The notes under the pieces: model-generated
Told to the model about the DNA's origin: nothing
What the model saw: the letters and a program-made list of their open reading frames with translations, nothing else
Database searches by the model: none
Program-made: the position numbers and the translations under genes
Assembly: GCA_016700015.1 (NCBI GenBank)
Contig: CP064995.1
Location: 979,182-1,011,181 of the forward strand
Source: Candidatus Saccharimonadota bacterium
GTDB lineage: Bacteria; Patescibacteriota; Saccharimonadia; Saccharimonadales; Saccharimonadaceae
DNA: 32,000 nt
Direction of reading: 5' to 3'
Shown here: positions 30,706-31,153 of the stretch, one piece after another
Layout of the letters: every line of letters starts with the position of its first letter
How positions within the stretch are numbered: position 1 is the first letter of the stretch

Positions 30706-31153
30706 AGAGAAATCTAAGAGCAGCCATAATCTAGGTAAAATTATGATTGGCTTGACGAGTGTAGTGCTTATTATAAGTTTGTACTTGAATGGCCTGACAG
30801 GCAGGTCTGAGTTTGGTGTAAAGGCCCTAAGGCCATGGTTCGGGTTGATGATATTCATATGCGTAGCCATCACGATTATTTCCGTAGTTATCTATAAGAA
30901 AAAAAGCCAGTGTTATGGAGACGTTTTTATCAGCTGTCGCCATACTGTTGTCAGTAGCCCTAAACTTCATCGGCTATGTAATGGGAAGTTATTGATCTTC
31001 TACGCCGCCGAAGCCCAGCTCGGCATCACCGACTACACGCCAACGGGCACTCCGGCCAATGCACCAGATAAAGCCACCCAACCTCTCCAACCCTGGAACC
31101 TCCTGGCTACTAGTAAAGATGTAGGGTATAGCTCACTGTTCAAAAGACCATAA
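30698..31153 (+). CDS. Chimeric ORF: a two-TM membrane protein (tm2) fused in-frame to a diverged copy of the hydrolase pre-tail segment
   Basis: It uses the same embedded GTGAGTAAA start. Sequence: MSKEKSKSSHNLGKIMIGLTSVVLIISLYL...WFGLMIFICVAITIISVVIY..., then FYAAEAQLGITDYTPTGTPANAPDKATQPLQPWNLLATSKDVGYS, then SLFKRP*. Confidence 0.5.
   Translation: MSKEKSKSSHNLGKIMIGLTSVVLIISLYLNGLTGRSEFGVKALRPWFGLMIFICVAITIISVVIYKKKSQCYGDVFISCRHTVVSSPKLHRLCNGKLLIFYAAEAQLGITDYTPTGTPANAPDKATQPLQPWNLLATSKDVGYSSLFKRP
30997..31132 (+). repeat. Diverged third copy of the pre-tail segment
   Basis: 136 bp aligned without gaps to 29769-29904, with 12 mismatches by my count. Confidence 0.85.

Follow-up and report, generated by a model that had tools for sequence, protein, structure and literature searches.

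A probable relic of a second, translated lipase allele in a small-gene cassette island of a Candidatus Saccharimonadota genome

Saccharibacteria are obligate episymbionts with genomes of ~1 Mb, in which few systems for conflict between strains or for interaction with hosts have been recognised. The genome considered here is a single contig of 1,011,181 bp and is 99.3% complete. The window is a stretch of 32,000 nt from this contig; unless stated otherwise, coordinates refer to the window. Its main feature is an open reading frame on the forward strand (26590-30129) with a translation of 1179 aa. The translation scores above the cut-offs for two Pfam families, PF13472 (44.4 bits; cut-off 32.9) and PF00657 (37.3 bits; cut-off 23.6), and it contains the conserved blocks GDSF (residue 383), GGND (residue 525) and DFHPNH. 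On these scores and blocks the product is classified as a predicted secreted SGNH/GDSL hydrolase, here called the lipase. The database entry starts at 26626 and gives 1167 aa. The protein comprises an N-terminal signal/TM segment, the GDSL core, TSP3-like Asp repeats, and a beta module of ~200 aa that is present twice, its second copy making up the last ~210 aa. Homologues are 1040-1190 aa long.

The 3' end of the lipase gene is followed by an array of small genes and partial lipase copies, all on the forward strand. The last 277 nt of the gene (29854-30130), delimited by sequence and by repeat search, form arm B1, which includes a Shine-Dalgarno (SD) sequence, GGAAGGAG, and an overlapping stop/start, GTGAGTAA. 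Here the GTG start of the first cassette gene, TM1 (30122-30427), overlaps the lipase stop. TM1 encodes 101 aa with three TM helices and has no Pfam or NCBIfam family. Arm B2 (30430-30706) begins 2 nt past the TM1 stop. It is an orphan, 5'-truncated lipase 3' end, 100% identical to B1 over its whole length, and it likewise ends in GTGAGTAA, which opens the second cassette gene, TM2 (30698-30995). TM2 has the same 3-TM architecture as TM1, with the last TM helix in the frame that ends at TGA 30993-30995; the two have no detectable similarity and are not alignable. Copy 3 (30997-31154) begins 1 nt past the TM2 stop. It is an orphan internal fragment of the lipase sequence, diverged by ~9%, with 45 intact codons (30998-31132) and a decayed end. 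The corresponding expressed codons (copy 1, 29770-29904) encode residues 1061-1105, FYAAEAQLG...DVGYS, inside the last beta module.

The TM2 frame is broken by a 1-nt shift within the A7 run at 30899-30905, which could be a homopolymer error, phase variation or the mark of a pseudogene. The assembled frame continues to 31153 with copy 3 in frame; this read-through gives a chimeric ORF of 151 aa (30698-31153), present in the protein database (P0043). A promoter-like TTGCTA-18-TACAAT lies within the coding arm at 30056-30085 and again at 30632-30661, ~40 nt before each cassette start. From this consensus match the arm may bring its own promoter.

The lipase and its cassettes together occupy an island of ~5.05 kb (26102-31154), inserted between a CBS-domain gene and aspS. 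These two genes are adjacent in three genomes of the same genus (G152, G108 and G181) and 5.2 kb apart in the window. When 26050-26101 is joined to 31155-31200, the reconstructed empty site aligns continuously with the intergenic region of G152; 26102-31154 is therefore an insertion, and copy 3 is cut at its right border. There the ancestral sequence resumes with TAACAGTGGTAGAATA (31151-31166, forward strand), a conserved aspS promoter-like motif with an extended -10 which is identical in G152. The lipase type was found in two of the five same-genus genomes searched. With a site that is empty in close relatives and a patchy presence in the genus, the locus has, by sequence comparison, the character of a genomic island. 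Both edges carry ATAAC (26097-26101 and 31150-31154). The edge repeat, taken as ACCATAA (7 nt) or as ATAAC (5 nt), was considered as a transposon-type target duplication and rejected: it is too short for significance and there is no mobility gene.

The left end of the island (26135-26530, forward strand) is formed by a small gene of the N-TM/sunset type that is broken in a run of G residues, and a truncated 64-nt copy of it (26467-26530). In the window this gene is upstream of the lipase; its relatives at the locus L036 described below are downstream, as cassettes. Beyond the right border, ~115 nt (31177-31290) separate the aspS promoter motif from the aspS ATG, compared with only ~8 nt in G152. 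A further TGTGGTAG-like motif lies in this segment, which may be another small insertion or else a long leader. The segment has no Rfam match; a search of 29500-32000 for RNA elements returned no Rfam match at E<=1.

Copy 3 and copy 1 were aligned by codon in the frame of the lipase ORF (29770-29904 versus 30998-31132). Over the 45 codons there are 12 nucleotide differences. Ten codons carry a single synonymous change at the third position (CCC/CCA, ACC/ACG, CCA/CCG, GCT/GCC, AAC/AAT, ACT/ACC, CAG/CAA, CCC/CCT, AGC/AGT and GAC/GAT). The sole amino-acid-changing codon, ACG in copy 1 and GCA in copy 3 (Thr to Ala), is altered at two positions. The mismatches had been called in the same way by an earlier sequence-only reading of the region, and the re-alignment reproduces all of them. 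The repeat was also recovered independently by repeat search (147 nt at 90%), and by BLAST within the whole genome (E=5.7e-53). Nei-Gojobori counts give 11 synonymous and 1 nonsynonymous differences (Sd=11, Nd=1) over 32.7 synonymous and 102.3 nonsynonymous sites; dS is 0.45, dN is 0.010 and dN/dS is 0.022 (Fisher p=4.3e-7). When the 12 substitutions were placed at random, keeping the observed mix of 10 transitions and 2 transversions, none of 100,000 trials had one or fewer amino-acid-changing codons (P<1e-5). Under a stricter null, in which the copy arose by in-place duplication and the expressed copy alone was constrained (dN/dS>=0.5), P is 2.4e-4. The other truncated repeat of the same island (26467-26530 versus 26137-26200, 89%) served as a control. 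It has four nonsynonymous and two synonymous codons, a neutral-like pattern unlike that of copy 3. The divergence of copy 3 was thus built up under purifying selection on the encoded peptide, which indicates that copy 3 derives from a translated allele.

The differences are clustered within copy 3. There are none across its first 43 nt (P=0.008, post hoc), which suggests a mosaic or a conversion tract. Past DVGYS the homology fades fast: copy 3 reads SSLFKRP* where copy 1 reads SPVFNKL, with a 4-nt gap, and the similarity is over by 31154. Judged by identity, copy 3 (91%) is not of the same age or history as the B repeat (100%). At least two events of different age, as had been proposed from the sequence, is a reasonable reading of this difference, although not the sole one: the complete identity of B1 and B2 requires either a very recent event or gene conversion.

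The source of copy 3 was sought in this genome and in relatives. There is no further copy of the lipase 3' region in the 1.01-Mb genome, and no second full-length gene with it. Two distant lipase paralogues are present, at genome positions 904030-906678 and 96907-99948. Both were rejected as the source of copy 3, as they are without this module and end in C-terminal TM anchors. Among available DNA, copy 1 and copy 3 are mutually nearest (91%), with 79-82% identity to three other Saccharimonas-like alleles; metagenome and genome scans yielded only alleles at 83% identity or less. By tail identity the nearest alleles are P0003 (91%) and P0004 (89%). None of the available main alleles is a full-length donor carrying the variants of copy 3. 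The dS of 0.45 between copy 1 and copy 3 resembles the 0.58 found between two S. aalborgensis-type genomes. The earlier proposal that copy 3 evolved as translated sequence in another allele or paralogue is therefore borne out in part: the synonymous excess agrees with it, but no second full-length gene in the genome shares this 3' end.

The same arrangement is found across the family. Downstream of an orthologous lipase of 1050-1190 aa come one to six small genes, the first of which starts in overlap with the lipase stop. The small genes are of two kinds. One encodes a 3-TM protein of ~95-120 aa, with nothing in Pfam or NCBIfam. The other encodes a protein of ~100-120 aa that has a single TM helix at its N-terminal end and, C-terminally, the motif YFC..EAE.AGY; its match to the sunset domain (NCBIfam NF051437) is weak and below the cut-off. 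The cassette genes are hypervariable and their order is shuffled between related genomes, while the lipase tail is 77-83% identical to the tails of the nearest species. On these comparisons, the variable element is the small gene downstream of the lipase, and not the lipase tail.

Among 13 relatives whose sequence extends at least 3 kb downstream, 11 have pieces of the lipase 3' end repeated before later cassette genes. With lengths of 17-347 nt and identities of 75-100%, these pieces all reach as far as the stop/start junction, so that each arm supplies the SD GGAAGGAG and a start for the next cassette. They generally begin no more than ~40 nt past the stop of the preceding cassette; the exception is one arm in L027. 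The locus L036 (ERZ724505 NODE-4) repeats the layout of the window: the main gene is followed by three sunset-type genes, a 315-nt arm at 98.7%, a small gene, and a 123-nt internal fragment at 91%. This fragment has seven synonymous and three nonsynonymous codons and abuts a convergent flanking gene. The same layout is found in L035, an independent assembly. The sequence-only reading had proposed a formal dN/dS comparison with more homologues. In six diverged arms from five genomes, dN/dS against the own main gene is 0.02-0.21 (Fisher p<0.004 for each), a range that matches main-to-main comparisons of orthologues over the same segment (0.04-0.19). Two of the six arms clearly reject a null of in-place decay (P=2.4e-4 and 0.004), and four do so marginally (P=0.08-0.10). 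The diverged arms are mostly nearest to the main copy of their own genome, so no donor is identified from them.

What follows the 45-aa peptide was examined in homologues and in a structural model. A region search with the tail-containing part gave 34 homologues of near full length, all with GDSL domains. Their alignment shows RNFYAAEAQLGISDYTPTGT, a variable linker, WNLLA.SK, and then always one homologous tail, which has two conserved cysteines (Cys...Cys) and usually ends in PEGxxCE. A phmmer search with the 86 pre-tail residues alone against 1.84 billion representative proteins gave 95 matches; wherever the motif was located in a full-length protein, a tail of the same type comes after the peptide. 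Departures are short or truncated proteins, including P0043 (the window ORF) and P0057 (an equivalent fragment in another genome), and two longer proteins with different endings, P0098 and P0102. Among the 34 homologues and 95 representatives, no unrelated tail follows DVGYS in the full-length proteins in which the peptide was located. Close alleles have diverged no further in the tail than in the pre-tail: P0001 and P0003 differ at 3 of 45 pre-tail residues and 7 of 75 tail residues, counted on the homologue alignment.

An AlphaFold2 model of the last 360 aa of the lipase (mean pLDDT 77.6; model residue = protein residue - 819) places the peptide within a folded unit. FYAAEAQL is modelled as a helix (model residues 242-249), WNLLATS as a strand (274-280) and VFNKLTITT as a second strand (288-296). 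DVGYS is predicted to be a turn between these neighbouring strands, within one beta domain, and the TPTGT...ATQ linker is a low-confidence loop. Structure alignments, which are weak (Z<=5.3), take model residues ~214-358 as one beta unit, and the first module (~55-198) mirrors it. A Foldseek search of the C-terminal modules against the PDB gave no match at E<=0.001. VIA-wide, the modules have a weak likeness (Z<=5.3) to beta-propeller-blade and lectin-like structures, an arrangement that is common. The C-terminal pieces of the lipase gave nothing in Pfam at E<=5, and the whole protein has only GDSL families at E<=0.01, with no toxin or pre-toxin domain. A regex search for demarcation motifs (VENN, Rhs, PxxxxDPxGL, LXG and the like) found none in the lipase.

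Copy 3 is probably a non-functional relic arm: a 3' coding piece of a second, ~9%-diverged translated Saccharimonas SGNH-lipase allele, placed here by cassette-shuffling recombination. Its differences from copy 1 would be silent because each sequence still belonged to an intact, translated lipase gene during the divergence; the 45 codons are in a conserved beta domain for which dN/dS is 0.02-0.1 among orthologues. Recombination, presumably homologous, that shuffles small membrane-protein cassette genes behind the lipase would then have brought copy 3 to its place. Each cassette would travel with a 5'-truncated lipase 3' end that provides the SD, the overlapping stop/start and a homology arm; older arms would be pushed downstream and then trimmed, and copy 3 no longer has a tail or a cassette of its own. 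On the right, copy 3 is cut where the 5-kb locus inserted between the CBS-domain gene and the aspS promoter, at a microhomology of 4-5 nt. The simplest account of copy 3 would be an allele of a sister lineage, translated until it was displaced or imported in a cassette exchange and then trimmed; its source would be import or displacement from another lineage.

Other explanations of copy 3 were weighed against this one. The sequence-only reading took the 45-aa segment for a conserved junction module that precedes the variable tips of a polymorphic toxin, which would make copy 3 the stub of an alternative tip. The locus is indeed laid out like the orphan arrays of CDI, Rhs and Maf, and copy 3 does diverge sharply from copy 1 past DVGYS. 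However, the same Cys...Cys tail is present in ~100 homologues, and among full-length proteins the peptide is never followed by an alternative one. The tail belongs to the same repeated beta module as the peptide, with DVGYS a turn inside it; close alleles vary as little after this point (7/75) as before it (3/45); neither a VENN/Rhs motif nor a toxin Pfam domain is present; and decay together with the island edge explains the abrupt end of copy 3. The junction idea is abandoned on this evidence, and the toxin reading is considered very improbable. Less credible still, and practically to be set aside, is a simple tandem duplication at this site whose untranslated copy decayed neutrally, with the synonymous excess due to chance or mutational bias. 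Tandem repeats at gene ends arise readily, and the differences are dominated by transitions (10, with 2 transversions). Against this, the simulation that keeps the transition/transversion mix rejects it (P<1e-5), as does the null in which only the expressed copy is constrained (P=2.4e-4), and the control repeat of the same island does show a neutral pattern.

Copy 3 could also be an artefact, in which the lipase allele of a co-assembled second strain was misjoined behind TM2. The genome is probably derived from a metagenome, exact repeats of 277 nt are hard to assemble, and the frameshifts at the A7 and G runs hint at homopolymer errors. Nevertheless, the junctions between the TM2 stop and copy 3 and between copy 3 and the aspS promoter share no misleading repeat, and on the right copy 3 meets ancestral sequence in a clean microhomology join. 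The same architecture is found in two independent assemblies of another species, with shorter arms in many genomes, and an assembly error is considered highly unlikely. A more serious alternative, although an unlikely one, is that the orphan arms are selected where they stand, either as silent donors and acceptors that recombine with the expressed gene (a second-order selection like that on pilS) or as translated peptides. In all six arms dN/dS is as low as between true orthologues. The nearness of most arms to their own main copy keeps this alternative alive; it fits old in-place duplicates that stayed constrained and so counts against the preferred origin from a second allele, as do the marginal rejection of in-place decay by four of the six arms on their own, the absence of the copy-3 variants from the main alleles compared, and the complete identity of B1 and B2 with its need for a further explanation. 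Several arms are in open frames with possible starts, with ORFs covering the arms in L033, L036 and L041, and copy 3 itself is in frame with the frameshifted TM2 (ORF 30698-31153, P0043). On the other side, the peptide of copy 3 equals the expressed peptide in all but one residue, so that switching would alter nothing. Copy 3 is without a start of its own, and its read-through frame is owed solely to the 1-nt shift in the A7 run, which leaves the last TM helix out of frame; it runs into a premature stop after the 4-nt gap. The arm in L041 has an in-frame stop, and B2 has no long ORF.

Orphan toxin/immunity modules are a feature of polymorphic toxin loci, such as cdiA-CT/cdiI of CDI systems, the displaced tips of Rhs, and MafB-CT/MafI of Neisseria. 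As in these, a large secreted-protein gene is tightly coupled to a small gene after it, and a tandem array of 5'-truncated 3' ends lies downstream, each followed by another small gene. The arms keep homology to the expressed gene and can mediate recombination; their divergence is stamped by former expression; and the locus is on a variable island. B2 with TM2 and copy 3 in the window, and the arms in 11 of 13 relatives, correspond to such orphan modules. However, the lipase C-terminal region is one conserved domain family and not a series of unrelated toxin domains. Hypervariability is found instead in the small gene that follows, which is of two unrelated kinds (3-TM and N-TM/sunset). The locus is without VENN or PxxxxDPxGL, no dedicated secretion partner is seen, and the host is a Saccharibacteria (CPR) episymbiont. 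Because alternative toxin tips and a demarcation motif are both absent, the locus is not classed with polymorphic toxins.

Neisseria pilE/pilS and Borrelia vlsE are silent-cassette gene conversion systems. They share with the lipase locus the presence, near an expressed surface-protein gene, of promoterless partial copies that keep a coding-like conservation. Unlike those systems, the lipase copies differ at 0-1 residues and give no antigenic variation, and each is tied to a different downstream gene. As B2 is identical and copy 3 is one residue off, the copies encode the same peptide and the locus is not one of pilS-type variation. A third comparison is with the Tle/Tli type, lipase effectors of T6SS/T7SS with adjacent immunity genes. 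Here too a secreted lipase/esterase has small envelope proteins encoded directly downstream, sometimes in several divergent copies. The enzyme in the window differs in being a Sec-type SGNH hydrolase with large adhesin-like flanks; its small proteins are integral 3-TM proteins without family assignment, and no secretion system is linked.

A broader and rather doubtful proposal is that the lipase 3' end is the active docking and recombination arm of a cassette-exchange system, by which strains trade hypervariable small membrane-protein genes and leave spent arms behind as coding-like fossils. If this were so, no earlier polymorphic effector/immunity-type locus would have been described in CPR episymbionts, and this one would be inverted, with the effector end constant and the partner variable; strain-level self/non-self or host compatibility could plausibly be set by cassette exchange. 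The exchanged small membrane proteins, whose tie to the lipase is seen as gene adjacency and the overlapping stop/start, could be immunity-like proteins, or accessory partners of the lipase. In the lipase 3' end, translation signals are combined with the homology by which a row of very diverse membrane-protein genes can be exchanged, and the locus bears signs of recurrent recombination, of mobility (the 5-kb island), and of selection imprinted on fossil arms. It is a testable candidate for effector/immunity-like or surface-compatibility variation in CPR. Copy 3 itself matters mainly as evidence of lipase alleles moving between lineages; it does not represent a new kind of toxin junction. A literature search found no paper on the Saccharibacteria lipase/cassette locus. 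What is new is that the arms bear a signature of selection, that the idea of variable tips is refuted and that the borders of the island are placed.

Some related loci depart from the common layout. In L037 (WBZP01006819.1, 5373-6452) and L043, an S. aalborgensis-type MAG, the main lipase seems to be frameshifted near its 3' end: there are 18 stops in the frame used for other loci, and the tblastn match is in two overlapping pieces. At L048 (5992-6417) the lipase is represented only by a 141-aa C-terminal fragment, with an ATG, ahead of 3-TM genes; the lipase body is matched separately, upstream. In the genome of the window, the site at which G152 carries its tail-type lipase (G000:C1:904030-906976, L053) holds an 882-aa paralogue with 31% identity over the lipase/Ig part and a TM anchor. 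It is followed by a 102-aa N-TM/sunset-type gene, the start of which overlaps the stop of the paralogue.
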